Below the pieces are notes generated by a model. It was not told where the DNA came from, did no database searches, and worked only from the letters and a program-made list of their open reading frames with translations. Below are positions 1 through 13,802 of a stretch of 23,152 nucleotides of DNA, piece after piece. The DNA comes from a virus, in the UHGV virus genome UHGV-0116223, one strand, 5' to 3'. Both the position numbers and the translations under genes were made by a program. Numbering within the stretch: the stretch's first letter is position 1; each line of letters begins with the position of its first letter.

Positions 1-11
1 ACTAAACATAT

Positions 12-39
12 TATCTGCCCCGTTTTATCGGGGCAGATA
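12..39 (-). terminator. hairpin terminator downstream of the ygaQ-like gene (possibly bidirectional)
   Basis: Perfect 11-bp inverted repeat tatctgccccg (12-22) / cggggcagata (29-39) with 6-nt loop, 10 nt past the TAA stop (50-52, minus strand); A/T-rich flank. Confidence 0.45.
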
Positions 40-49
40 TAACATTAAA

Positions 50-2302
50 TTATAAATAGAGATAGTTCGGCGGTTCTCCTGTTTTCCCTAAAAGAAGAGC
101 GCTACGCCCAGGAATATTGATATTTAGAGTTCCGCCTCTAAGCGTAAATACTTTACCAGGGGGGATAATTTTTCGGGTATTATTAATAATAATGTTAACG
201 CTATTACTCCCCATGTTTTTGTATATTCCAGGTTGCAATTTGTTAGGCCAGGTACCTTCAACTTCTTCGTTTCCTTTATTTATTATAACTAGTCCATCAT
301 GAGGAGAGTGATTAATGTTCACAGAATCCCCACGACTAAAGGCCAGAACGTTTTTAGTTGCAGATATACCCTCAAATGCGCTCCATATTCCTGCTTTATC
401 TATATATAATGCGTGGAATTCATTGTAGAGCTGCTGATAGGTAGAGCAACCTTTATTAAGCTACGCCTCACCGCCGACACGCGTGGACCCATCATAATTT
501 TTAATTTCAGTCGTTGATTTTAATACTTGGCCATCCCAGTAAACTAAAGGCCTGCTGAACGGCAGAGCGGCTATATATGCCATTGCTAATTGTTCATCTT
601 GTTGATGGTTAAATAGAAAGTCATTGAAAAGATTACCATTGTTAGGAAAATCGTGGTTAATGTTAATCAATATCCGTCTTTCTGATGGGATACTTGAGAT
701 TGTGGAACCCGGTTTTGATGCAAGGGTTTGAAGATCTCCACCAAATGAAAAGGCTTTTATCGTTTTCATGAGCAATGAAAAATCAATGGCGCTTAAATCA
801 TCTCTTTCATAAAGCAGTGATGACATTTGTTGTTCATCCAACTGACAAGTTACCAGATATTCCATGTAATTCATAACGGCTTTTTTATGATATTTTGGGT
901 TAAATAAGTTAGTATTGTGTAACCGCTCATTATAATTTTTAAGCGGTGGGGTTATTGATCTTTCTATTTGTTCATGTTTTGAGTGTTTTGCCGCATCATA
1001 ACGTAAACCTCGTACGCCATATTTTCGCATTTCACGAACGTATTGATTTTGCAACATAATAACCTGGTCACTTTTGGGTGTTGTTTTAGGCATTCCATTT
1101 AAACGCTTTTCTTTTAATGCATGGAGGTTTTCCCATTCATCCTTAGAGATGTTATCTTTACTTGCTTCGAAGTCTTTTGCAGTGAGATGTATATCTTCTG
1201 GATGGATTTGTTTACGTTCTTTTGTTACTGGATCTTTAATGAATGGAATCAAAACCTGACCTTGCTAATAGCCAGGGATACCACCTTCTATATCTTTACT
1301 GATCTTCGCTCGTATATCAGCAGAGGGATAATCCAGGTCATTTTTACCACTACCCCCAATTCCCATAAAGTTAAAGGTATAATCAGGAATGATATCGATA
1401 CCAAATTTTTTAGCATCTTTAACCAATGCAATAAAATCCTGCAAATCTCCCATTGGATTATGGATGGTACAAAGATCTTCGGGTTGATAAGCATGAAACC
1501 AGTAACCCTTTTCTTCTTCGGGAGTTTCTGGTCCGTCGGCGCGGAAAGTTGTCACTGGAGGGATTTGTATATACCCATAATGACAACGTGCAAATTCAGA
1601 CATATTTTCTCTGATCTGCTGGTAGGTGGCATTAAAAGCATGAAGAATCGCTTCGCCAGGTTTTTTGGGGGTGATGATTTCACATTGTGATTTCTGAACA
1701 GCAGTAAGAGATTTACGCTCAAGTGTTTGCCGTAGATGTTCTAGATTGATTAATATTTTAAATGTTTCTTGCTGTCCGGAAGGTGACGTCACGTTAATAT
1801 TATATACATCGGCTGCCAGCTCATAGTCAGGAATGTTAATAGCATATGCAACATATTTATCTTTTGGGGAAGGTTTGTCAGATATAATGTGGGTGAAATG
1901 TTCAGCACGACCATACTGATAAACACCGCTGTTATCACCTCTTTCAATCATTGTATCTCGTTGATAAACCTATGTTTTTCTTTCTCCTATCCTGTCTGGC
2001 GCTGTAATGCTACGCTGTGCTGCTTTATTCAACTCTCGGTAAGTTGTATCTGGAGAAAGGGAAATTTTATAATCGTTTTTTAACAGATCATTAATAACTT
2101 TTTCTGCGTGAAAAGTTGATATAATTTCTCTGTCTTTTAATCCTTGAGGGTAAACTCCACAAGAATTAATAATATTTGTTATACAGTTTAGATATTCTAA
2201 TGTATTTAATTTGGAATTTAGATCCCCGTCAGTAATGTTCCATGATAACAATGTGGGGTTGTCGATAGGTAAATTTCTGGGTCCTGGTTTTATAGAAAAC
2301 AT
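50..2302 (-). pseudogene. ygaQ: glycoside hydrolase family 13 (alpha-amylase-like) gene interrupted by three in-frame TAG codons
   Basis: Four ORF fragments (1970-2302, 1265-1951, 461-1252, 50-322) all in one frame. Separating stops at 1970-1972, 1265-1267 and 461-463 each read cta on the plus strand (TAG). GH13 signatures in correct order: HAFN...GYIQIPP, DIIPDYTFNFMG, GVRGLRYDAAKH, then AFSRG/VIINKG domain-C-like tail. GAGGAA RBS only before the ATG at 2302. Gene symbol from recalled K-12 synteny with ileY. Confidence 0.8.
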
Positions 2303-2861
2303 AATAAAGTTCCTCTAATGGTAGAGTAATATGATGTATACGGAAACATAAAAATGTTTAATTGTTGTGAAAGTAATTGCAAACAGATGTCCTACTTTTA
2401 TCCAATATTTATATGGAAAAGGATAATGCTTAAATCTGTTTTATTAATTATCGATGTGGTCTGGAGAGGCAACTGTCAAAAATCGCTCATACGAAACTAA
2501 TGATTAGCAGAATAAGATCTATGAAAGAATATATTGCTATACGAAGTTTATTTTTATGGAGTGAAAAGTAACAGATATCATAATGATGCGAAAACTCTTC
2601 AGCTAATGTAATAAAGTTATATTATTAGATACAAAATCATTACAAAGTATCATTGAATCGATGATAACTATAGATAGTGCTAATTATTAACATTTGCTTG
2701 TTGACTGCGAGTATCGACTTTGCGAATGGAGGCGGTGTCGGGTTTTATGTCGCGTGTAATCACGACCCAAGGTGAATGGGAACGCATAAAAATCTGTTAT
2801 TTACATCATATGATCATCATGTTTATTGCGTGGTTTATAAGTATTGTTATTGCACACTCAA

Positions 2862-2937
2862 GGCCCTTTAGCTCAGTGGTTAGAGCAGGCGACTCATAAT
2901 CGCTTGGTCGCTGGTTCAAGTCCAGCAAGGGCCACCA
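2862..2937 (+). tRNA. ileY: tRNA-Ile2 (anticodon CAU, lysidine-modified minor isoleucine tRNA), CCA encoded
   Basis: 76-nt cloverleaf: acceptor GGCCCTT/AAGGGCC, D-arm GCTC-AGTGGTTA-GAGC, anticodon loop CTCATAA (CAT at 2895-2897), T-arm GCTGG-TTCAAGT-CCAGC, 3' ACCA. Matches the E. coli ileX/ileY tRNA as I recall it; the acceptor stem variant is the ileY type. Confidence 0.92.
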
Positions 2938-2939
2938 AA

Positions 2940-3173
2940 TCATTATTTACGTATCAGGAAGAGTTAAGGGTACAAGGGGTACTCGATGGCGGTCTATATT
3001 TCATGACTAACGCCATTTCAAGGAAGAAGTGCGGTGGGTGGTTTCGAATGAGGGCTGGTGTTTTGGTACGTGGCACGCCACTGCAATGTATTTATCCATC
3101 AGTACTCATTCAAAAGTACCTGGAAAAAATGCCTGCTATGCCAAGCGGGCAAATTGCTTACATGTGGAATTAA
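2940..3173 (+). pseudogene. degenerate remnant of a P4-family tyrosine integrase N-terminus, abutting the tRNA 3' end
   Basis: In-frame translation from the tRNA end reads SLFTYQEELRVQGVLDGGLYFMTNAISRKKCGGWFRMRAGVLVRGTPLQCIYPSVLIQ. It retains the spacing of P4-type integrase N-terminal hallmarks (L-T-x-T-Q, DGGGLYL, W-x-F-R-Y, G-x-YP-x-VSL). No start codon or catalytic domain remains. Confidence 0.4.
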
Positions 3174-3687
3174 GTAATTAACGATAAAGCCAGAGTATTA
3201 TCATTTATTATACCCCTTCATTTAATCAGGTTAATTACTCAAATCACTGAACTATTCTCTGTTCGCTCACTGATGATAAGTGAGTACCACAACCAATGTA
3301 TGTAGAACAATGCCGTAGAGTAAGGATGAAATGTCTCTGCCACGCCTTAAACATCTACTACTGACCAGAACACCCGCCGCAGGCAGATGAGTTTTGTGAG
3401 CGTTACAGGAGCGTGGCTATGCTCATTAACCAACGCTATTGAGATATAAATTTCTAACACTTGAAAAACGATTTTCACTAATAAATTATAACGGTTTTTT
3501 TTATCATACAGCGAAATAACCTTTTGTTTATTAAATTTAACATTCCTGTGCTAATTTAATTAAAAGTTCCATGCGTAGCAAGTGAAGCAGTTAATGTCAG
3601 TAATTGTCTCAAATGAGCGTTTTTTTATAGTGACAAACAGTAATAACATTAAAAATAGCCATGTAGACATTAATTGAGGAATAGACA

Positions 3688-4170
3688 ATGTTAGTTAGTA
3701 AAAGCAACGGATTTAACGCTAGCGCAGTTTTGGGTAGTGGAAGTTATAATGAAAATAAATCTTCTAAACACATGGAGCTACTAGCTCATAGTATTTTAAA
3801 ATTAATTTGTAAGGAAGCTGCATCAGAGACGTATCGCGGTGCTCTTGAAACTTTACAAAAAATGATGTCTGAATGTATATATCAAGAAGGCAACGCCTTT
3901 GTCATTATGGGAGCTGGAGAACAATTAAAACGTATTAAATATGAAGTTGGTGAAAATAACTTAAAGGTATTCAACGTACACTTTAATAATAATCACGAGT
4001 TAGTTAGTTCTGGTGAGCCTGACGTAATATGTTTAAGCAAGCAGGTCTGGGAAAATCTTCTCATTAAACTAAAGCTGGAAAACAATGAAAATGTGTTTTC
4101 TGAAACTAAAAAATTATCGAATAAAAATAATGCCGATCAGTTTTTTGAATGCGCTAAAAGAAATGAATAG
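3688..4170 (+). CDS. ypjC: hypothetical protein, low-GC island gene; N-terminal segment of a reading frame that continues through a TAG into 4270-5061
   Basis: ATG at 3688 preceded by GAGGAA RBS at 7-nt spacing; about 33% GC; ends at TAG 4168-4170. Gene symbol from recalled K-12 gene order. Confidence 0.6.
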   Translation: MLVSKSNGFNASAVLGSGSYNENKSSKHMELLAHSILKLICKEAASETYRGALETLQKMMSECIYQEGNAFVIMGAGEQLKRIKYEVGENNLKVFNVHFNNNHELVSSGEPDVICLSKQVWENLLIKLKLENNENVFSETKKLSNKNNADQFFECAKRNE

Positions 4171-4269
4171 AACCTTTTCGATAATATAAGAAAAAGTGAT
4201 TTTCATGTTGGTTTACTTAAGCCAAGTAGTACGCGTAGTGTTATTTTAGAAACGCCGCCAAATGTCTGT

Positions 4270-5061
4270 ATGGAATCACGTAATTCATATGAAAACAAAA
4301 TAGATGAGATTTCATCTTTGTCAGAGTCAAAGGAACACCCCATAGATATTCAAGAAAAAAAAGATGCGTTTGTGAATGAGTTCAAGGGGGTATTATTTGA
4401 TAAAAATACAAGGTCTTCAGAGCTTCTGTTTAATTTTTATGAGTGTTGCTATAAGTTTTTACCAAGAGCTCAGCCTCAAGATAAAATCGATAGCTATAAT
4501 TCAGCACTGCAAGCTTTTTCCATTTTTTGTTCATCTACGTTGACACATAATAATATAGGCTTTGATTTCAAATTATTTCCTGAAGTCAAGCTGTCTGGAG
4601 AACATCTTGAAACGGTATTCAAATACAAAAATGGCGATGATGTCCGGGAGATAGCCAAAATTAACATTACTCTCCAAAAAGAAGAGGGTGGTTTATATAA
4701 TTTACGTGGATTGGATTTTAAGGGGTGCTTCTTTTCTGGACAGAACTTCAGTAACTATGATATTCAATATGTGAACTGGGGAATGTCATTGTTTGATGTT
4801 GATACTCCGTGTATTTTTAATGCGCCTGCTTACAACAAGAGTAATGAAAAATCATTAAAACCTGTGAGCGAAAACGGTTTAAGTGGAGTATTGACTGATC
4901 GTAATAATAAAATAAAACTCATCACGGGCGTGGCACCATTCGATGATATTTTATTTATGGATGATGACTTTGATGATAGTTCCTCTGAGGATGATCCCGT
5001 TGAGAATAGTCCTGTTGTGACTAGTCCCGTTGTATCAAGTTCTAAAAGCAGTTTTCAATGA
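4270..5061 (+). CDS. ypjB: hypothetical protein (263 aa) with acidic Ser/Pro/Asp-rich C-terminal tail; same frame as 3688-4170 and lacks its own RBS
   Basis: ORF in the same phase as 3688 (offset 582 nt). The 99 nt between (4171-4269) are stop-free in frame. No Shine-Dalgarno before the ATG at 4270. Low GC. Confidence 0.6.
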   Translation: MESRNSYENKIDEISSLSESKEHPIDIQEKKDAFVNEFKGVLFDKNTRSSELLFNFYECCYKFLPRAQPQDKIDSYNSALQAFSIFCSSTLTHNNIGFDFKLFPEVKLSGEHLETVFKYKNGDDVREIAKINITLQKEEGGLYNLRGLDFKGCFFSGQNFSNYDIQYVNWGMSLFDVDTPCIFNAPAYNKSNEKSLKPVSENGLSGVLTDRNNKIKLITGVAPFDDILFMDDDFDDSSSEDDPVENSPVVTSPVVSSSKSSFQ

Positions 5062-5330
5062 TTAATAAATGGCAATTTTTACAAAGAGATAATAACGTAG
5101 ATTGAAACAATATGTATTATTGATTGAGTAAACGGGATTATTCTTCACACTACATCCATTTTAGTGTCACTACCAAAGAAAAAGGGGCTACGTTTTCATG
5201 TAACCCCTTGATTTATTTGGTGGGCTGGCAGTGACTGAATTGGTGCTGTAATTGGTTGAAATATTTCATCTAATGTCTGGTTCAACTTTCCTTAGCTGCC
5301 TGAAAGTTTTTTGATCTTACCCAGCAATAA

Positions 5331-5396
5331 CAGCGTTACGGTGCACCACGCCTGACTGAAGAACTGCGTGCTCAGGGTTACCACTTCAACGTAAAA
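5331..5396 (+). mobile_element. IS3-family transposase (OrfB/InsF-like) internal fragment
   Basis: Translates to [22 protein letters not shown], nearly identical to the recalled IS3 OrfB segment [22 protein letters not shown]; preceded by an in-frame stop and followed by unrelated sequence. Confidence 0.6.
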
Positions 5397-5397
5397 C

Positions 5398-5572
5398 CGT
5401 GGCAGGAGGTCCGGACTGAAAAAACTGGTCAGGACATCATCGGCAGGGAACGCACTGCTAGTCTGTAAACTGAACCGACTGGGGCGCAGTATGTGGCATC
5501 TTGTCGTGCTGTTGGAGGAGCTGTGCGAACGTGGTATTAACTTTCGTGCTCTGGCCCAATCTATATTTGCCC
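5398..5572 (+). pseudogene. pinH: serine DNA invertase (Pin/Hin/Gin family) fragment lacking the catalytic N-terminus
   Basis: Frame +1 translation [53 protein letters not shown] aligns with Pin [53 protein letters not shown]. Begins exactly where the IS3 fragment ends. Confidence 0.65.
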
Positions 5573-5972
5573 AACAATGGGGGGACGAATGCTGTAAAAG
5601 TAAAACAATCTGCGATCTCAAAGTTATTGTGTGATTTTTATGTGAGCAGAAGATATTCATCAGAAACGATTATGTAAATCATTTTATTTTGCCAACGGCC
5701 TCATTGTCGAAAGAAAAAAATACGCCCGTATTTCCTGAATGGATTGACTTTTTTATCCAACCACACTTCAGCGCACTGCGTTTAAAAAATGCCTCATTCT
5801 TATGCGGAATATCATCATTTCATCATGATGTCTTTGATGAGCGGTGAACACAATACACTTGCGCTGTCTCTTCAGGATGAATCCCCTGGTCTGGTGCCTG
5901 TGGGCTGATGTTGCAGCAAAGCTAAGGTCGCTTAAACGCTACTCAGTATTCACTTTTCAGAGGATGAAATTT

Positions 5973-8900
5973 ATGAACAGGACCAGTCCCTATTATTGTC
6001 GCCGCTCAGTACTTTCCTTATTGATATCTGCCTTGATATATGCCCCGCCCGGGATGGCTGCCTTCACTACTAATGTTATTGGTGTGGTAAACGATGAGAC
6101 TGTAGATGGCAACCAAAAAGTGGATGAACGAGGTACAACAAATAACACTCATATTATCAACCATGGCCAGCAGAATGTTCATGGCGGGGTATCTAATGGA
6201 AGTCTTATTGAATCTGGTGGATATCAAGATATAGGAAGTCATAACAATTTTGTGGGGCAGGCTAATAATACAACCATTAACGGTGGCAGACAGTCAATTC
6301 ATGACGGGGGTATTTCCACAGGTACGACAATCGAGAGTGGCAATCAGGACGTTTATAAAGGGGGTATCAGCAATGGAACGACAATTAAGGGCGGTGCTTC
6401 ACGCGTAGAGGGAGGGAGTGCGAATGGAATACTCATTGATGGTGGTAGCCAGATAGTAAAAGTTCAAGGGCATGCTGATGGTACAACGATAAATAAGTCT
6501 GGCTCTCAGGACGTAGTACAAGGAAGTCTGGCAACGAACACAACCATAAATGGTGGTCGACAGTATGTTGAACAGAGCACAGTAGAAACAACAACCATTA
6601 AAAATGGCGGTGAGCAAAGAGTATATGAGAGCCGTGCGCTGGACACGACGATTGAAGGCGGAACTCAGTCTCTGAATAGTAAGTCAACGGCAAAAAATAC
6701 GCATATCTATTCTGGTGGCACGCAAATTGTTGATAACACCAGCACCTCGGATGTTATTGAAGTTTATTCTGGTGGCGTGCTTGATGTTAGTGGTGGTACG
6801 GCAACAAATGTTACCCAGCACGATGGTGCAATTTTAAAAACTAACACTAACGGTACGACGGTGAGCGGTACGAATAGTGAAGGTGCATTCTCCATCCACA
6901 ATCACGTGGCAGACAATGTGTTGCTGGAAAACGGTGGTCATTTAGACATAAACGCATATGGTTCGGCAAACAAGACGATTATTAAAGATAAAGGAACAAT
7001 GTCAGTTTTAACCAATGCTAAAGCTGATGCGACCCGAATAGATAATGGCGGGGTTATGGATGTTGCAGGAAACGCGACAAATACCATAATTAATGGTGGC
7101 ACACAGAATATTAATAATTATGGCATAGCCACAGGCACCAATATCAACAGCGGAACGCAAAATATCAAAAGCGGCGGGAAAGCTGACACAACAATTATAT
7201 CCTCCGGGAGCCGGCAGGTTGTTGAGAAAGATGGTACGGCAATTGGCAGCAATATTAGCGCCGGAGGCTCGCTGATTGTCTATACCGGCGGTATTGCACA
7301 TGGGGTTAACCAGGAGACGGGCAGTGCTTTAGTTGCCAACACGGGTGCAGGGACTGATATCGAAGGATACAACAAGCTCTCTCACTTCACTATTACCGGA
7401 GGGGAGGCTAATTATGTTGTGCTGGAAAATACCGGCGAACTGACGGTAGTGGCTAAAACCTCGGCGAAAAATACTACCATTGATACTGGCGGTAAGCTGA
7501 TTGTCCAGAAGGAGGCTAAAACAGATAGCACCAGACTTAATAATGGCGGCGTTCTGGAGGTTCAGGACGGTGGTGAGGCTAAGCATGTTGAGCAACAATC
7601 CGGCGGCGCATTAATTGCTTCCACGACCTCCGGAACACTTATCGAAGGAACCAACAGTTATGGTGATGCTTTCTACATCAGGAATTCAGAAGCTAAAAAT
7701 GTAGTGCTGGAAAACGCTGGCTCATTAACAGTCGTCACTGGTTCCCGCGCAGTTGACACGATTATTAATGCCAACGGCAAAATGGATGTTTATGGAAAAG
7801 ATGTTGGCACTGTACTCAATAGTGCTGGCACCCAAACAATATATGCCAGTGCCACTTCTGATAAAGCAAATATCAAAGGTGGCAAGCAAACGGTATATGG
7901 TTTAGCCACTGAAGCAAATATCGAAAGTGGTGAACAAATTGTTGATGGTGGGTCAACAGAGAAAACACACATCAATGGTGGCACGCAAACCGTTCAGAAT
8001 TATGGTAAGGCAATCAATACCGATATCGTCTCTGGCCTACAACAAATTATGGCAAACGGGACAGCGGAAGGTTCCATTATTAATGGGGGTTCACAGGTAG
8101 TTAATGAGGGCGGTCTGGCTGAAAACTCGGTGCTTAATGACGGCGGCACACTCGATGTGCGGGAGAAAGGCAGCGCAACGGGGATACAGCAGAGTAGCCA
8201 GGGCGCTTTGGTTGCAACCACCAGGGCGACGCGGGTCACAGGAACACGCGCGGATGGCGTCGCGTTCAGCATCGAGCAGGGTGCGGCGAACAATATCCTG
8301 CTGGCAAATGGCGGCGTGTTAACCGTGGAGTCAGACACCTCTTCTGACAAAACACAGGTCAATATGGGCGGACGGGAGATCGTCAAAACAAAAGCCACTG
8401 CGACAGGCACGACGCTCACCGGCGGTGAACAAATTGTCGAGGGTGTGGCGAATGAGACAACAATTAACGACGGCGGAATACAAACAGTTTCAGCTAACGG
8501 AGAGGCAATAAAAACAAAGATCAATGAAGGCGGTACGCTGACAGTCAACGATAATGGCAAAGCGACAGATATCGTCCAGAACAGCGGTGCCGCTCTCCAG
8601 ACGAGCACGGCTAACGGTATTGAAATCAGCGGTACTCACCAGTACGGTACTTTTTCCATTTCCGGCAATTTAGCGACCAATATGTTGCTGGAAAATGGCG
8701 GTAATTTATTGGTATTAGCAGGTACCGAAGCTCGCGACTCCACGGTTGGCAAGGGTGGGGCAATGCAAAACCTGGGTCAGGACTCCGCCACAAAGGTTAA
8801 CTCTGGCGGGCAATATACCCTTGGGCGGTCAAAAGATGAGTTTCAGGCTCTGGCCCGGGCAGAAGATCTCCAGGTCGCTGGCGGTACGGCAATCGTCTAC

Positions 8901-10553
8901 GCAGGTACGCTGGCGGATGCATCGGTCAGTGGCGCGACAGGAAGCCTGTCGTTAATGACGCCACGGGATAATGTTACGCCAGTTAAACTCGAAGGGGCGG
9001 TCCGGATTACCGATAGCGCGACATTGACTCTGGGAAATGGCGTCGATACCACGCTTGCCGACCTGACGGCTGCCAGCCGGGGCAGTGTCTGGCTTAACAG
9101 CAATAATTCCTGTGCAGGTACCAGCAACTGCGAATATAGAGTAAACAGTTTGCTACTCAACGACGGTGATGTTTATTTGTCAGCACAAACAGCAGCGCCT
9201 GCCACAACTAACGGTATCTACAATACGCTGACAACCAATGAACTTTCCGGTAGCGGTAATTTCTACCTGCATACCAACGTTGCAGGCTCCCGGGGCGATC
9301 AACTGGTCGTCAACAACAACGCCACTGGTAATTTTAAAATCTTTGTTCAGGATACCGGCGTCAGCCCACAGTCTGACGACGCGATGACGCTGGTGAAAAC
9401 AGGGGGAGGGGATGCTTCGTTTACGCTGGGCAATACCGGCGGTTTCGTTGATCTTGGGACCTATGAGTATGTCCTGAAAAGTGACGGCAACAGCAACTGG
9501 AACCTGACCAATGATGTCAAACCCAACCCGGACCCCATCCCAAATCCAAAGCCAGACCCAAAACCCGATCCAAAGCCAGACCCAAATCCAAAACCAGACC
9601 CTACTCCCGATCCAACGCCGACACCCGTTCCGGAGAAACGCATTACGCCTTCTACGGCAGCCGTACTCAATATGGCAGCAACATTACCGTTGGTATTTGA
9701 TGCTGAGCTAAACAGTATTCGCGAGCGGTTGAACATAATGAAAGCGAGTCCACACAACAATAATGTCTGGGGGGCGACGTATAACACCCGTAATAATGTC
9801 ACCACCGATGCGGGTGCCGGGTTTGAGCAGACGCTGACCGGAATGACAGTGGGGATCGACAGCCGTAATGATATTCCTGAAGGAATTACCACGCTAGGCG
9901 CTTTTATGGGCTATTCCCATTCACATATCGGTTTTGATCGCGGAGGACATGGCAGTGTGGGCAGTTATTCTCTGGGCGGCTATGCCAGTTGGGAACATGA
10001 AAGTGGTTTCTATCTGGACGGTGTCGTGAAGCTGAACCGTTTTAAAAGTAACGTAGCAGGTAAAATGAGCAGCGGTGGAGCCGCCAATGGCAGTTACCAC
10101 AGCAACGGGCTGGGCGGTCACATTGAAACCGGGATGCGATTTACCGATGGTAACTGGAACCTGACGCCGTATGCATCGTTAACGGGGTTCACCGCTGATA
10201 ACCCCGAATATCATTTATCCAATGGCATGAAATCGAAATCAGTCGATACCCGCAGTATATATCGTGAACTGGGCGCAACGCTGAGTTACAACATGCGTCT
10301 GGGGAACGGTATGGAAGTTGAGCCGTGGCTGAAGGCGGCTGTGCGCAAAGAATTTGTCGATGATAACCGGGTGAAAGTGAATAGTGACGGTAATTTCGTC
10401 AATTATTTGTCGGGCAGACGTGGAATATACCAGGCAGGTATTAAAGCCTCATTCAGCAGTACGTTAAGCGGGCATCTTGGGGTGGGGTATAGCCATAGTG
10501 CCGGTGTGGAATCCCCGTGGAACGCGGTAGCTGGTGTGAACTGGTCGTTCTGA
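5973..10553 (+). CDS. ypjA: AIDA-I-type autotransporter adhesin (1526 aa): extended signal peptide, beta-helical passenger, Pro-rich linker, C-terminal beta-barrel
   Basis: MKF-MNRTSPYYCRRSVLSLLISALIYA extended signal peptide (ATGs at 5964 and 5973, GAGG upstream). About 19-aa degenerate repeats (TTINGGxQxV...GG). PNPDPIPNPKPDPKPDP linker. C-terminal aromatic-rich barrel ending ...AGVNWSF. TGA at 10551-10553. Length 1526 aa from 5973 matches recalled K-12 ypjA. Confidence 0.9.
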   Translation: MNRTSPYYCRRSVLSLLISALIYAPPGMAAFTTNVIGVVNDETVDGNQKVDERGTTNNTHIINHGQQNVHGGVSNGSLIESGGYQDIGSHNNFVGQANNTTINGGRQSIHDGGISTGTTIESGNQDVYKGGISNGTTIKGGASRVEGGSANGILIDGGSQIVKVQGHADGTTINKSGSQDVVQGSLATNTTINGGRQYVEQSTVETTTIKNGGEQRVYESRALDTTIEGGTQSLNSKSTAKNTHIYSGGTQIVDNTSTSDVIEVYSGGVLDVSGGTATNVTQHDGAILKTNTNGTTVSGTNSEGAFSIHNHVADNVLLENGGHLDINAYGSANKTIIKDKGTMSVLTNAKADATRIDNGGVMDVAGNATNTIINGGTQNINNYGIATGTNINSGTQNIKSGGKADTTIISSGSRQVVEKDGTAIGSNISAGGSLIVYTGGIAHGVNQETGSALVANTGAGTDIEGYNKLSHFTITGGEANYVVLENTGELTVVAKTSAKNTTIDTGGKLIVQKEAKTDSTRLNNGGVLEVQDGGEAKHVEQQSGGALIASTTSGTLIEGTNSYGDAFYIRNSEAKNVVLENAGSLTVVTGSRAVDTIINANGKMDVYGKDVGTVLNSAGTQTIYASATSDKANIKGGKQTVYGLATEANIESGEQIVDGGSTEKTHINGGTQTVQNYGKAINTDIVSGLQQIMANGTAEGSIINGGSQVVNEGGLAENSVLNDGGTLDVREKGSATGIQQSSQGALVATTRATRVTGTRADGVAFSIEQGAANNILLANGGVLTVESDTSSDKTQVNMGGREIVKTKATATGTTLTGGEQIVEGVANETTINDGGIQTVSANGEAIKTKINEGGTLTVNDNGKATDIVQNSGAALQTSTANGIEISGTHQYGTFSISGNLATNMLLENGGNLLVLAGTEARDSTVGKGGAMQNLGQDSATKVNSGGQYTLGRSKDEFQALARAEDLQVAGGTAIVYAGTLADASVSGATGSLSLMTPRDNVTPVKLEGAVRITDSATLTLGNGVDTTLADLTAASRGSVWLNSNNSCAGTSNCEYRVNSLLLNDGDVYLSAQTAAPATTNGIYNTLTTNELSGSGNFYLHTNVAGSRGDQLVVNNNATGNFKIFVQDTGVSPQSDDAMTLVKTGGGDASFTLGNTGGFVDLGTYEYVLKSDGNSNWNLTNDVKPNPDPIPNPKPDPKPDPKPDPNPKPDPTPDPTPTPVPEKRITPSTAAVLNMAATLPLVFDAELNSIRERLNIMKASPHNNNVWGATYNTRNNVTTDAGAGFEQTLTGMTVGIDSRNDIPEGITTLGAFMGYSHSHIGFDRGGHGSVGSYSLGGYASWEHESGFYLDGVVKLNRFKSNVAGKMSSGGAANGSYHSNGLGGHIETGMRFTDGNWNLTPYASLTGFTADNPEYHLSNGMKSKSVDTRSIYRELGATLSYNMRLGNGMEVEPWLKAAVRKEFVDDNRVKVNSDGNFVNYLSGRRGIYQAGIKASFSSTLSGHLGVGYSHSAGVESPWNAVAGVNWSF
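9520..9630 (+). repeat. imperfect tandem 12/24-bp repeats encoding the (P-x-P-D/K) autotransporter linker
   Basis: ccaaagccagacccaaa occurs at 9546-9562 and 9570-9586, embedded in a run of cc(a/c)(a/g)a(c/t)cc(a/g)ga(c/t) units. Confidence 0.6.
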
Positions 10554-10564
10554 CCATCAACGAA

Positions 10565-10611
10565 AAAGCCCACATCTGTGGGCTTTCATGTTACCAGGAG
10601 CCGCGGCTCCT
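10565..10611 (+). terminator. tandem hairpins downstream of the autotransporter gene
   Basis: Perfect 10-bp inverted repeat aaagcccaca/tgtgggcttt (10565-10586) followed by T-rich tract, then perfect 16-nt palindrome aggagccgcggctcct (10596-10611) followed by ttgcgtatcctttt. Confidence 0.55.
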
Positions 10612-10702
10612 TTGCGTATCCTTTTATGTCTCCTCACCGTCTGGTCGGTGTTTTGCTGAGACTTCTAACTTCCTGTTTTTGTTGGTGTTGTCCTTACACC
10701 GT

Positions 10703-10743
10703 CCAATCATGATTGGCTGGCGGGAGTTGAACCCGTGTCCGAA
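10703..10743 (-). other. attachment-site remnant: 28-nt ssrA (tmRNA) 3'-end-like core next to a 14-bp palindrome
   Basis: Minus strand 10743-10716 reads TTCGGACACGGGTTCAACTCCCGCCAGC, matching the recalled ssrA 3' region TTCGGACGCGGGTTCAACTCCCGCCAGC with 1 mismatch; the terminal TCCACCA is absent. Adjacent perfect palindrome ccaatcatgattgg (10703-10716). GC content and gene content change at this point. Confidence 0.55.
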
Positions 10744-10818
10744 TATTTGCAATGCGTTGATTTATAACGAATAAAATTTAAAGTTGGTTCTTACGGCTCT
10801 TTTGCGGATATTTTACTA

Positions 10819-11637
10819 TCAATTCGTAGTCCTGCCATATTTACGTTTTTTCTTGCGGTTTGTTTCTGGTTTCTTCTCTCGGTTATTGTCTACTTTTTCA
10901 TGTATATCCATATTGAACCAAGAAGCATGCGAAACCTCACTTAATGGAAATATGATACTGGTATCAACTCCATCAAGATCGTTGTAATCATTTGAAAACA
11001 GGACCCTTAGTGTGTCCTTGTCCCTGTAACCAGATATGATTGGGCTAATAGAAATTTCAAGGTTAGGGCCTTGTTTTTCGTTTGGCTCACTAATCATGTT
11101 AACTGTTCCGACATATACTTTGCGGCATTTCAGGCTTATCAGTACCGGTCTGTTTGTAGTCGCTGAATCAAAGAATAGCTGACCAAGTGAGCCATCAGAC
11201 AACAGTTTTTCCAACTCATTAAGCCTGATTAGTTGCTTTGCGAAATTGATAGAAATTGCATTATTGGATGCAGAACTAATAGTTTTTGCTGCCACAAACA
11301 TACGAAATTTGCATATCTGCAACCAAATAAAAGCAACTCCACAAGTCGCCACTGATAGCAGGATGAGCCATGATGTTATCCTGTTTTCTTTAGGGTCTGC
11401 ACTACCATCAATAAGATGTGATACCCATGTGACCAGTGTAAGGCTTGGTATAAAGTACTTGGTTGCATACGCCAGCACGACTGCAACAATGAACGAGTAC
11501 ACACCGTACGTGGCCACCTTCATATAGAGAAGCTGGCCGTCGTAACGGTGGAGTCGATAGAATAATTTGATGTTATGGGGCGATGTAACCAGTAAGGATC
11601 CACTTACTAAAAGTGGAATGATCAGCAATGCAAACAT
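10819..11637 (-). CDS. hypothetical membrane protein (272 aa): three N-terminal TM helices, soluble C-terminal domain, Lys/Arg-rich tail; second gene of cargo operon
   Basis: ATG at 11635-11637 lies 3 nt after the TAA of the upstream gene (translational coupling). About 38% GC versus about 55% in phage structural genes. Hydrophobic segments at residues 1-17, 40-62 and 85-107. No motif I can assign. Confidence 0.7.
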   Translation of the reverse strand: MFALLIIPLLVSGSLLVTSPHNIKLFYRLHRYDGQLLYMKVATYGVYSFIVAVVLAYATKYFIPSLTLVTWVSHLIDGSADPKENRITSWLILLSVATCGVAFIWLQICKFRMFVAAKTISSASNNAISINFAKQLIRLNELEKLLSDGSLGQLFFDSATTNRPVLISLKCRKVYVGTVNMISEPNEKQGPNLEISISPIISGYRDKDTLRVLFSNDYNDLDGVDTSIIFPLSEVSHASWFNMDIHEKVDNNREKKPETNRKKKRKYGRTTN

Positions 11638-11640
11638 TTG

Positions 11641-11889
11641 TTAGTCGTCATTGTCCATTGAGTTAGCTTTAGCGGCTGCAACAGCTTTTGCATCCTGCTC
11701 GACGAATTTTCTAGCTGCTTTCCTAAGCTGAGTGATTTTTTCTGGGTCAGTAGATGGGTCTACAATAACTGCACCACGCCCTACGACCTTGATGTTTTTA
11801 ACACCAGATTTGTTCAAACGATCGGCCATGGCTTGTCCGCCTTTGACCAAATCATTCAGCCCAAACATCTTCATGACTAGTTCTGACAT
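11641..11889 (-). CDS. hypothetical small soluble protein (82 aa); first gene of cargo operon
   Basis: ATG at 11887-11889 with AGGAGG RBS at 5-nt spacing (plus 11895-11900). Hydrophilic, Ala/Lys-rich, acidic C-terminus (MDNDD). No recognisable domain. Confidence 0.7.
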   Translation of the reverse strand: MSELVMKMFGLNDLVKGGQAMADRLNKSGVKNIKVVGRGAVIVDPSTDPEKITQLRKAARKFVEQDAKAVAAAKANSMDNDD

Positions 11890-12184
11890 AAAGACCTCCT
11901 TTCAGTCCCCCCAATGTATCCTTTTGAGGCATTTATTGCTCCCCGCAGAACGGGGCGCGGGATTTTACCATAATCTACGTACTGGCTCCAAGATTTCCCG
12001 CGTGTTCCTAGTACTAGGACAGCTGCCTGAGTACCAAGTTCACCTATAACATATATGCTTGGTTCGAATTTTTGCAAGGTAAAAAGTGCCTTATGTTTAA
12101 GTATGTATGATGTGGATATGACGAACATAACCACATCACAAATAACTTTTTATCAGGTTTCAGTGGCTATTTGTTCGGGCAGCA

Positions 12185-13360
12185 TCAAGCCTGTTTTGTA
12201 TCATTAGTATTTTTAGCGGTATGTCCGTCATATGCAGCAAGGTAACTGCCATAGTGACGAAATAGCATTTCTGGTCCCTTATGGCCCATCTGGCCTGCAA
12301 GCCAGAACAGGTTCGCACCACGGCTGATATGGCTGGTGGCGAATGTATGCCTGGTCTGATATGGGTTACGGTACCGGATACCTGCTTTACGTAAGGTTGG
12401 TATCCACGCTTTTTTCCTTATCGCATCGGCGCTGGCCCACGGTTTGTTTGTCTTTGGATCTTCAAAGACAGTAGCATCCTTCATGAATGTAAATGGCTTC
12501 TGATTTATCAGCGCCAACATTGCCTCTTCTGTCAGTTCAACTTTACGAGTACCGGCTTTTGTCTTTGTTCCTTTGATAACACCGACAACACTTGCGCTCT
12601 GGACATGGGCAGTTTTTCCAACAAAGTCGATATCACGCCATCGAAGGGCACATAATTCAGAACTACGCAGGCCTGTATGTATAGCGAACCGGAACAGATT
12701 TTCCCATTGTTTGTTTCCGGCTGCTGCTAGTAATGCATCAACTTCTGCTGGTGATAGCGGATCAACCACGTAGCTGCTTTCTGCTTCTGACTTATCACTT
12801 TGGTAGCGCGAAGCAGTTACCAACGATACGGGGTTAATTTGAAGTACCCCATCGGTTACGGCTTCATCAAGTGCTGACCGCAGGAAAGATAACTGGTTGC
12901 GAATTGTTTTTGAGGTCGTTTTCTGGCTTTGAATCCACGCTTTCAGGATTGCTGGTGTTAATTCACTTGCAGGGCAAATGTGGAGTGAGGCTAACGCACT
13001 ACGGCATTTTTTATAACCACCAATCGTAGAGGGTGAAAGTTTTCTCGTTTCGCAGATTTCAAGGTATTCGTCCAGGTACATTTTTACCGTTTTGCCTGCA
13101 GCAGCATTACCAAAAATTTTCAAACGAGCAGAACGGGGAAAATATTCCGCATAAATGAATGTTCCCCTTTCGATCTTATTATGAATTTCGCCGAGTGTGC
13201 GCTCGGCGTATTTTATGTTCTTTGGTATTACTTCCAGATTGGAAAGAGGCTCACGACATTTAACTCCTTTGTAGGTGAAAGTTATATTGATCGTTTCGCC
13301 CTGGCGGTGTTTCCTGATTGTTACGCCGCGCGGTAGTTTGAGCAGTTTTGTCTGGCCCAT
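12185..13360 (-). CDS. phage tyrosine integrase (site-specific recombinase)
   Basis: 391 aa. Catalytic-domain motifs TGLRSSELCALRWRDID, RHTFATSHISRG, LAGQMGH and RHYGSY (Arg-His-Arg-Tyr set). GAGG RBS before the ATG at 13360. Overlapped at its 5' end by the excisionase-like gene. Confidence 0.93.
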   Translation of the reverse strand: MGQTKLLKLPRGVTIRKHRQGETINITFTYKGVKCREPLSNLEVIPKNIKYAERTLGEIHNKIERGTFIYAEYFPRSARLKIFGNAAAGKTVKMYLDEYLEICETRKLSPSTIGGYKKCRSALASLHICPASELTPAILKAWIQSQKTTSKTIRNQLSFLRSALDEAVTDGVLQINPVSLVTASRYQSDKSEAESSYVVDPLSPAEVDALLAAAGNKQWENLFRFAIHTGLRSSELCALRWRDIDFVGKTAHVQSASVVGVIKGTKTKAGTRKVELTEEAMLALINQKPFTFMKDATVFEDPKTNKPWASADAIRKKAWIPTLRKAGIRYRNPYQTRHTFATSHISRGANLFWLAGQMGHKGPEMLFRHYGSYLAAYDGHTAKNTNDTKQA

Positions 13361-13527
13361 TTTGCAACCTCACTAAGATCAATCCACCTCTCCTTAACGC
13401 CTTCAACCTTTAAAACCTGAACACCTTCACGCCAAACACCGCGCTGTACACGTTTGTTTATTGCTTCAGGAGTTTCGCCAGTTTCTTTGCAATAAGTTGA
13501 GATTGGAACACAATCGAGGTTCAGCAT
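13321..13527 (-). CDS. putative excisionase / small DNA-binding protein (about 68 aa)
   Basis: Small basic ORF immediately upstream of int and overlapping its start by 40 nt. GGAG RBS 6 nt before the ATG at 13525-13527 (the table start at 13539 is a GTG further upstream). Call rests on position and size only. Confidence 0.5.
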   Translation of the reverse strand: MLNLDCVPISTYCKETGETPEAINKRVQRGVWREGVQVLKVEGVKERWIDLSEVAKWARQNCSNYRAA

Positions 13528-13586
13528 ATGTTTCTCCACTTAGCCCGCTGCACACGGGCAGTAATATCAAATTCCAGTCCTGATAA

Positions 13587-13802
13587 TTAATTTTGTTCCC
13601 TGGTTGCTACCTGTTTTATTGGCCTGATGCTGTCCAGTAGCAGACGGCGACGCATGTTAGGTGCCCCCCAACGGTAACCAGTCTTTTTGTCGTAGGATTC
13701 ACAACGTCCGGCAACCCAGGACGTTTCAGTGGAATGTAATTTCATCCGCTTTTCACCGTCTCGGGTGATAACAATTCCTGTATGAGTTTTTATCACGCTC
13801 AT
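13587..13802 (-). CDS. hypothetical phage early protein (71 aa)
   Basis: ATG overlaps the stop of the upstream gene (ATGA, 13799-13802), indicating translational coupling. Confidence 0.5.
   Translation of the reverse strand: MSVIKTHTGIVITRDGEKRMKLHSTETSWVAGRCESYDKKTGYRWGAPNMRRRLLLDSIRPIKQVATREQN

Follow-up and report, generated by a model that had tools for sequence, protein, structure and literature searches.

The minus-strand segment at 10716-10743 of the 23,152-nt stretch of DNA analysed here (hereafter the window) very probably represents a displaced 3' fragment of ssrA, the tmRNA gene, which forms the attR of a lambdoid prophage of the LLS/UTI89 integrase type integrated at ssrA. The window is E. 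coli DNA. To the left of the junction lie a tRNA gene with a CAT anticodon, ypjC/ypjB-type genes and the autotransporter gene ypjA; to the right follow two small ORFs, a tyrosine integrase, an excisionase and yfdP/Q/R-type early-left genes, after which plus-strand genes lead to the terminase, portal and protease at the right end of the window. The change in gene content and GC that the preliminary description had placed here is present, but the fall in GC is modest, from 0.50 at 10001-10500 to 0.43 and 0.41 in the following two 500-nt bins. The same description had taken the segment for the distal attachment-site remnant of an element integrated at ssrA, and this is supported by relatives sharing the junction, by the empty site of strain EC590, by the integrase and excisionase genes, and by the attP layout of phage LLS.

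The ssrA fragment

Read on the minus strand from 10743 to 10716, the sequence is TTCGGACACGGGTTCAACTCCCGCCAGC, which matches nt 329-356 of E. coli ssrA (the reference being the 363-nt gene of the empty-site strain EC590) at 27 of 28 positions, which confirms the 28-nt copy of the preliminary description; the sole mismatch is G336->A, at 10736. With up to 3 mismatches allowed, the window still contains a single occurrence of the 19-mer GGGTTCAACTCCCGCCAGC, and shuffled sequences give an expectation of 0.01. The Rfam tmRNA model aligned its T-arm to 10721-10735 (15 nt, 12.9 bits, E=0.17, with a gathering score of 47), which is weak if taken alone, and neither ARAGORN nor Rfam found a full tmRNA gene in the window. 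Because of the extent of the match, the low chance expectation, the Rfam alignment limited to the T-arm and the null result with ARAGORN, the feature is a fragment of ssrA, and neither a functional tmRNA gene nor a chance similarity. The weak Rfam score could by itself be read as a fortuitous resemblance, or as a conserved intergenic motif that has nothing to do with integration, but the identity to ssrA and the 0.01 expectation make this practically negligible; moreover, the match runs on into more than 150 nt of native ssrA-downstream sequence, and the insertion-free strain EC590 has a single copy of the 28-mer sequence, inside ssrA itself, and not a conserved intergenic copy of the kind that the preliminary description had named as contrary evidence.

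The fragment can be divided into two parts. The phage-arm (P) part at 10736-10743 (minus strand) reads TTCGGACA and resembles ssrA nt 329-336, with the substitution at its last position. These bases are common to all genomes carrying this prophage and differ in the sibling phages UTI89, LLS and ETEC1730, each of which leaves ssrA just 5' of the T-stem. The attR core part at 10716-10735 (minus strand), CGGGTTCAACTCCCGCCAGC, equals nt 337-356 and is identical to the intact gene; the T-stem with its T-loop (10725-10731) lies within this part, as does the beginning of the 3' acceptor strand. Directly after it, at the junction 10715..10716 on the same strand, nt 357-361 (TCCAC) are missing, which gives the allele CGCCAGC-----CA: the window reads CCAGC^CAATC, against CCAGCTCCACCAATC in the intact gene. 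It had been stated that the copy lacks the terminal TCCACCA; this has to be corrected, as only TCCAC is gone.

The chromosomal side of the junction

Between the fragment and ypjA lies the chromosomal B' arm (10554-10715, minus strand), which alignment to EC590 and K-12 identifies as the native region between ssrA and ypjA. It contains the hairpin GGAGCCGCGGCTCC at 10607-10620 and a terminator hairpin at 10565-10586, and the latter, a native terminator, was the only signal found when arm-type repeats and promoter or terminator signals were sought around the att site. In strains where the flank is of the glaH type, homology to the window starts at 10563. The neighbouring gene, ypjA/ehaD (5844-10553, plus strand), codes for an adhesin-like autotransporter, from Pfam matches to AIDA, Pertactin and Autotransporter and from RefSeq annotation in relatives.

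The DNA further to the left has features of its own. Positions 1-5500, left of ypjA, are markedly AT-rich (GC 0.31-0.42), and this segment is missing from the glaH-flanked strains HS13-1, UTI89 and SA186, in which the ssrA-downstream flank abuts glaH; its composition and its absence from these strains suggest that ileY, ypjC, ypjB and ypjA form an old accessory block of their own. The tRNA gene at 2862-2937 is called tRNA Met (anticodon CAT) by ARAGORN. Its counterpart at the equivalent place in the relatives TA8571 and O157 F7508 carries the annotation tRNA-Ile, which is what one expects of a lysidine-modified tRNA of the ileY type. An Rfam Plastid-ycf2 match antisense to this tRNA (2862-2935) falls below the gathering threshold and was discarded as an artefact of the tRNA-like structure. 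An 85-aa ORF with a GTG start (10517-10774, plus strand) takes in the stop codon of ypjA, the flank downstream of ssrA and the fragment itself; none of the related RefSeq genomes has it annotated, and it is most likely spurious.

Occupied and empty sites in related genomes

The window ends 12.4 kb past the fragment, and none of the 5,426 complete E. coli genomes covers at least 80% of it; ssrA and attL were thus read in relatives having this junction. In strain PCP06173 it is retained at 99.9% identity over window 9800-13800, and an intact ssrA follows on the minus strand, 16.2 kb rightward of the fragment and behind a degraded prophage. In strains 4588 and SA186 the intact gene is found in the same orientation 45.5 and 46.6 kb to the right, respectively, with a complete lambdoid prophage in between that is bounded exactly by ssrA on one side and by the fragment on the other. 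The intact ssrA that had been predicted beyond the right end is therefore located in three relatives. A strain lacking the element, a comparison that had also been proposed, is available in EC590, an unoccupied site where ypjA is followed by 160 bp and an intact ssrA. The window flank after the palindrome is 100% identical, over the 112 nt compared, to that of EC590 and to that downstream of psaA in K-12, and the alignment runs unchanged on to ypjA; against EC590, window 10604-10702 and the stretch beyond it up to ypjA agree at 100%. When attB (EC590), attL and attR (4588), the window and the attP of phage LLS were aligned together, attR consisted of phage arm, core and the chromosomal flank of attB, and attL of ssrA followed by a phage-type flank. 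Of the pattern on which the Islander approach relies, the tyrosine integrase inside the element and an unoccupied site with a matching flank (EC590, over the same 112 nt) are present, and a same-orientation fragment downstream of the intact gene is seen in three relatives with an identical junction.

One might ask whether the fragment is the fossil of an earlier, lost element, the present prophage having arrived by homologous recombination or being bounded elsewhere. Tandem arrays and replacement are common at the ssrA locus, and the chromosomal half does look older than the phage, as identical flanks with 1-nt or 5-nt deletions accompany other elements. However, the phage half (10736-10818) is contiguous with the integrase and the cargo in every genome, it matches the LLS attP arm in position and orientation, and the attL and attR of the relatives bound a complete 45-47 kb prophage exactly, all of which renders a fossil very unlikely. 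The contiguity of the phage half and the exact bounds of the prophage in relatives argue instead for the hybrid P-core-B' structure of a true attR. The P arm proper, a non-coding AT-rich segment from the core to the first cargo gene (10744-10818, minus strand), is contiguous with the prophage in relatives: this holds for all 16 complete genomes that carry the prophage (16/16), whatever lies to the left.

The phage flank present at attL and attP is also similar to the chromosomal ssrA-downstream flank, at about 90-91% identity over some 112 nt beyond the 28-nt core (window 10590-10702 compared with L004 1250-1365, L012 ~3010-3120 and L005 ~3990-4140), and at 85% for LLS against the window. Both flanks hold the hairpin GGAGCCGCGGCTCC and then diverge into different terminators, which leaves attL and attR with imperfect homology over roughly 170 bp. 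A function in tmRNA 3' processing or termination, a past pick-up of host DNA, and a function as arm sites are candidate explanations for this copy of the ssrA trailer in the phage.

The palindrome and the site of strand exchange

A perfect 14-bp palindrome, CCAATCATGATTGG, occupies 10703-10716 and combines the CCA with which ssrA ends and the 11 nt that follow. The intact gene ends in ...CCAGCTCCACCAATCATGATTGG, where the palindrome overlaps the CCA end, and continues as ...CCAGCTCCACCAATCATGATTGGACGG... into the downstream flank, palindrome included. It also occurs at the empty site of EC590, at the attL of 4588, PCP06173 and SA186, and in the attP of LLS, and is therefore native sequence and not an insertion junction. 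The preliminary description, by which the copy lacks TCCACCA and instead runs into the palindrome, took this native sequence for a novel junction; the copy in the window is the native sequence short of the five nucleotides TCCAC. The palindrome is broken at the attR of SA186 (CCAAATAATGATTGG), which means that it is not required as the crossover site.

Strain SA186 was also the most informative for the core. Its chromosomal flank reads TCCACCAAATAATGATTGG and its attL has the canonical palindrome, so that the exact identity between its attL and attR is restricted to CGGGTTCAACTCCCGCCAGCTCCACCAA, 28 nt (CGGG...CCACCAA). Aligning the two copies, as had been suggested for defining the core, thus yields this block, and the comparison confines strand exchange to it, that is, to the equivalent of window 10716-10735 plus the next 8 nt; exchange at the centre of the palindrome is ruled out. 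A crossover in the palindrome, with the fragment as a decaying phage pseudogene, had been considered and was largely rejected, the identity between attL and attR of SA186 stopping before the palindrome centre.

Within the block, the borders of the phage arms are informative. The arm meets the stem as …GGACA|CGGG in the window, …GGACT|CGGG in UTI89 and …CAGGTG|CGGG in ETEC1730, while LLS has …ACGGGCG|CGGG against …TCGGACG|CGGG in ssrA, its last mismatch being three bases before the stem. All four of these different arms are perfectly conserved from the T-stem onward. With integrases that use tRNA genes, identity spans from the crossover to the 3' end of the gene, and the T-loop between its symmetric stem arms is a standard integration sub-site. 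Three such sub-sites are named in the Islander paper (PMC4383910). Since the four arms diverge just 5' of the T-stem and are conserved thereafter, strand exchange most likely takes place in the 7-nt T-loop (10725-10731), flanked by the inverted repeat of the T-stem.

The same observations bear on a different reading of the fragment, by which the whole 28-mer, 5-nt gap included, is phage-borne, a decaying pseudo-ssrA, and exchange occurs further 3', at TCCACCAA or in the palindrome. Under that reading the gap would represent either phage polymorphism or damage to the overlap region; ssrA would remain intact after excision, or excision would be blocked. The 5-nt deletion is indeed found with this integrase family in the window, in HS13-1 and other ST95 strains, and in UTI89, and a perfect 14-bp palindrome does resemble a recombinase core site. 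Against this, in SA186, where the arm is the same, the palindrome is disrupted at attR but canonical at attL, which places exchange 5' of the palindrome centre; the 1-nt and 5-nt deletions occur with unrelated elements on the same flank (CP4-57 of K-12 and OI-108 of O157); the arms are conserved from the T-stem and divergent 5' of it, as expected for exchange in the T-loop; and the attP of the free phage LLS has an intact TCCACCA. A wholly phage-borne fragment is thus improbable, and we retain a P-core-B' hybrid with a probable exchange point in the T-loop.

The integration module

The integrase gene (12185-13360, minus strand) codes for a tyrosine recombinase with Arm-DNA-bind_2 (E-value 1.4e-21), SAM-like and Phage_integrase (1.4e-15) domains and a match to PHROG 1 (integrase), 85% identical to LLS Int over 385 aa. 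The excisionase gene (13321-13527, minus strand; PHROG 2917) corresponds in position to WP_001331174 in relatives, and both int and xis are present at full length. Between int and the core lie two cargo genes on the minus strand, of 272 aa (10819-11637, PHROG 3630) and 82 aa (11641-11889, PHROG 35771), for which no PADLOC, Pfam or NCBIfam match was found. The structural model of the first has an N-terminal helical region, probably a membrane region, followed by a C-terminal Sm/WYL-like small beta-barrel, and the structure search returned only a generic Sm/WYL-like beta-barrel.

The integrase is accordingly distal and separated from the core by cargo, as had been described from the sequence. 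That this is opposite to the usual arrangement is accurate in relation to P4-like islands such as CP4-57 and the second element of TA8571, whose integrase is on the ssrA-proximal side, but not for this phage group, where it is the normal layout, common to LLS, 4588, SA186 and UTI89. The distal position follows from the orientation of the ssrA-like core in the attP of the group. With a distal integrase of the Arm-DNA-bind_2 type that is 85% identical to LLS Int, the element does not belong to the P4-like CP4-57 family; it has the properties of the LLS-type lambdoid ssrA integration module, namely this level of Int identity, the ssrA 3' end in attP and int at the fragment side.

The opposite, ssrA-proximal end of the sibling prophages carries genes for a type II restriction endonuclease, a DNA cytosine methyltransferase and a GIY-YIG (LEM-3-like) protein (L001 16202-18878; L009, ETEC1730, 44337-47013; L012 3232-5908). 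Strain 4588 has BRO-N, HTH and ImmA genes there instead, and the ssrA-proximal end of these prophages is a second variable cargo site; in the prophage studied here this end falls outside the window.

Known elements at the same locus

A close parallel at the same chromosomal position is psaA (b4645) of K-12, a pseudogene that is the attR of the cryptic prophage CP4-57 and, like the fragment described here, a displaced ssrA 3' fragment. The flank of the window (no difference in the 112 nt compared) follows directly, then ypjA, and psaA is damaged at nt 357 as well, by a deletion of 1 nt versus 5 nt in the window; the psaA fragment is shorter, its identity starting at ...ACTCCGCCAGC. [quoted passage not shown]

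The ssrA prophage of UTI89 is a second close case. It has a sibling integrase (annotated as 390 aa), an identical Xis, and int at the fragment end with cargo between int and the core. Its cargo differs (hypothetical, STAS-like and hypothetical), as do its phage-arm bases (TTTGGACT versus ATTCGGACA in the window) and its flank, which is of the glaH type whereas the flank of the window is ypjA. Eco48X of RS218, which from its table entry has the same 5-nt deletion allele as the window, CGCCAGC-----CA, would be the same element as the UTI89 ssrA prophage. Phage LLS (attP in PQ299149) shares the order and orientation of int, cargo and 'tmRNA pseudogene'/attP and, like this prophage group, has a look-alike of the ssrA downstream region of about 140 nt in its attP. 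Unlike the window, LLS is a free phage with an intact TCCACCA in attP; its arm mismatches to ssrA differ, and its one cargo gene is unrelated to those of the window. A prophage with 99.7%-identical Int occupies ssrA, LLS-type integrase prophages have their site in this gene, and LLS shares 29 identical bp with the 3' end of ssrA (PMC12315714). OI-108 of O157:H7 has the ypjA flank, the 5-nt deletion allele, 100% identity over window 10654-10722, and recombinase genes at the fragment end. It is nonetheless an unrelated element, with two adjacent tyrosine recombinases and a fragment without the T-arm (…ACAGGGACGCCAGC).

Distribution of the 5-nt deletion

The deletion is a catalogued allele. Among the entries of Table 1 in PMC10107115 (citing Williams 2003), CGCCAGC-----CA is given for E. 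coli RS218 Eco48X, O157:H7 EDL933 Oi108 and Salmonella LT2 Stm27X, and CGCCAGC-CCACCA for K-12 CP4-57. The same paper shows experimentally that excision of CP4-57 carries its 1-nt deletion into ssrA, and that catalogued fragment mutations, when put into E. coli tmRNA, abolish trans-translation (PMC10107115). The Islander paper applies the term 'damaged tDNA fragments' where a small deletion lies 3 bp upstream of the discriminator, and its count of damaged islands is 148 (PMC4383910); the window fits this definition, its deletion starting at ssrA nt 357, right after CCAGC.

Among the genomes compared, the 5-nt allele is also present in HS13-1, UTI89 and O157 F7508. An identical phage arm is joined to an intact TCCACCA in strains 4588, SA186, AR_0081 and TA8571, to a 1-nt deletion in PCP06173, and to the 5-nt deletion in HS13-1 and three other strains. 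The 1-nt deletion lies beside a ypjA-type flank both in CP4-57 (K-12) and in sibling phages (PCP06173, ETEC1730), and the 5-nt deletion accompanies three different elements, the phage of the window, its UTI89 sibling and the unrelated OI-108. Since both deletions go with the flank more closely than with the element, the deletion is probably a property of the chromosomal side; the occurrence of the same arm with intact, 1-nt-deleted and 5-nt-deleted fragments also fits independent decay.

A further fragment was seen in ETEC1730 (L009 ~47215-47265), where a second ssrA copy with a 4-nt gap, CTCCGCCAGC^CCAATCATG, is part of a tandem array and joins the arm of a P4-like element to the lambdoid phage's own flank. 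Recurrent damage at nt 357 is thereby shown to originate in fragments that P4-like elements have displaced.

Proposed course of integration and excision

In the proposed model, the phage would integrate into the 3' end of ssrA by site-specific recombination of the tyrosine-recombinase type, its attP bringing its own look-alike of the ssrA 3' end and the recombining core being the 28 nt CGGGTTCAACTCCCGCCAGCTCCACCAA. The gene would be rebuilt at attL, past the right end of the window, from chromosomal 5' DNA and phage 3' DNA, and the phage-type arm after ssrA at attL would read …CCACCAATCATGATTGGACGG…TTAGCAGTCTCAGCAGGACACC…GCCCGCTTATGCGGGC; the intact gene is predicted on the minus strand, some 35-50 kb rightward of 10743. 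The old chromosomal 3' end and its flank (10554-10715) would stay beside ypjA, joined to the arm with cargo, int and xis.

If exchange occurs in the T-loop, the 5-nt gap is on the chromosomal side of attR and excision would move it into ssrA. Precise excision is thus rather likely to leave an ssrA without nt 357-361, most of the 3' acceptor strand, the good copy leaving on the circle; with exchange 5' of nt 357 the attB scar would read CCAGCCAATC (lacking nt 357-361). Excision performed in silico gave a product with the 5-nt deletion that ARAGORN still called a tmRNA, with its 5' end shifted by 48 nt; as such a call does not speak to function, it was set aside. By analogy with CP4-57, excision that abolishes tmRNA function would make loss of the prophage costly to the host. 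If exchange were instead 3' of nt 356, the phage side or the overlap region would hold the deletion, and a different outcome for ssrA would have to be expected.

One might speculate that the deletion was not made by this phage and may be inherited from an earlier occupant of the site. An older element would have left a damaged fragment, the phage of the window would then have integrated into ssrA upstream of it, and the older element would have excised between the middle copy and the damaged copy. Such a three-step route is consistent with the tandem arrays that occur in TA8571 and ETEC1730. A bolder proposal, which we regard as doubtful, is that the 5-nt defect is more than simple decay and acts as a heritable chromosomal 'lock', handed on between occupants of ssrA through rounds of integration and excision, by which an otherwise intact prophage, proficient in int and xis, holds tmRNA hostage, the phage trailer of about 140 nt being kept for tmRNA 3' maturation or termination. 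Were this true, a cell from which the prophage had excised precisely would be defective in ssrA, and this would stabilise the prophage or serve as a switch for ribosome rescue.

A displaced tmRNA-gene fragment with a catalogued allele is already known, and since the allele is on record and the effect of excision has been demonstrated for CP4-57 in K-12, the present case confirms existing knowledge and does not extend it. The fragment marks the left end of the prophage and its target, ssrA, and so is of use for annotating the element and for predicting what its excision yields. Biologically, what matters is the 5-nt defect: precise excision would probably leave the host without a functional tmRNA.
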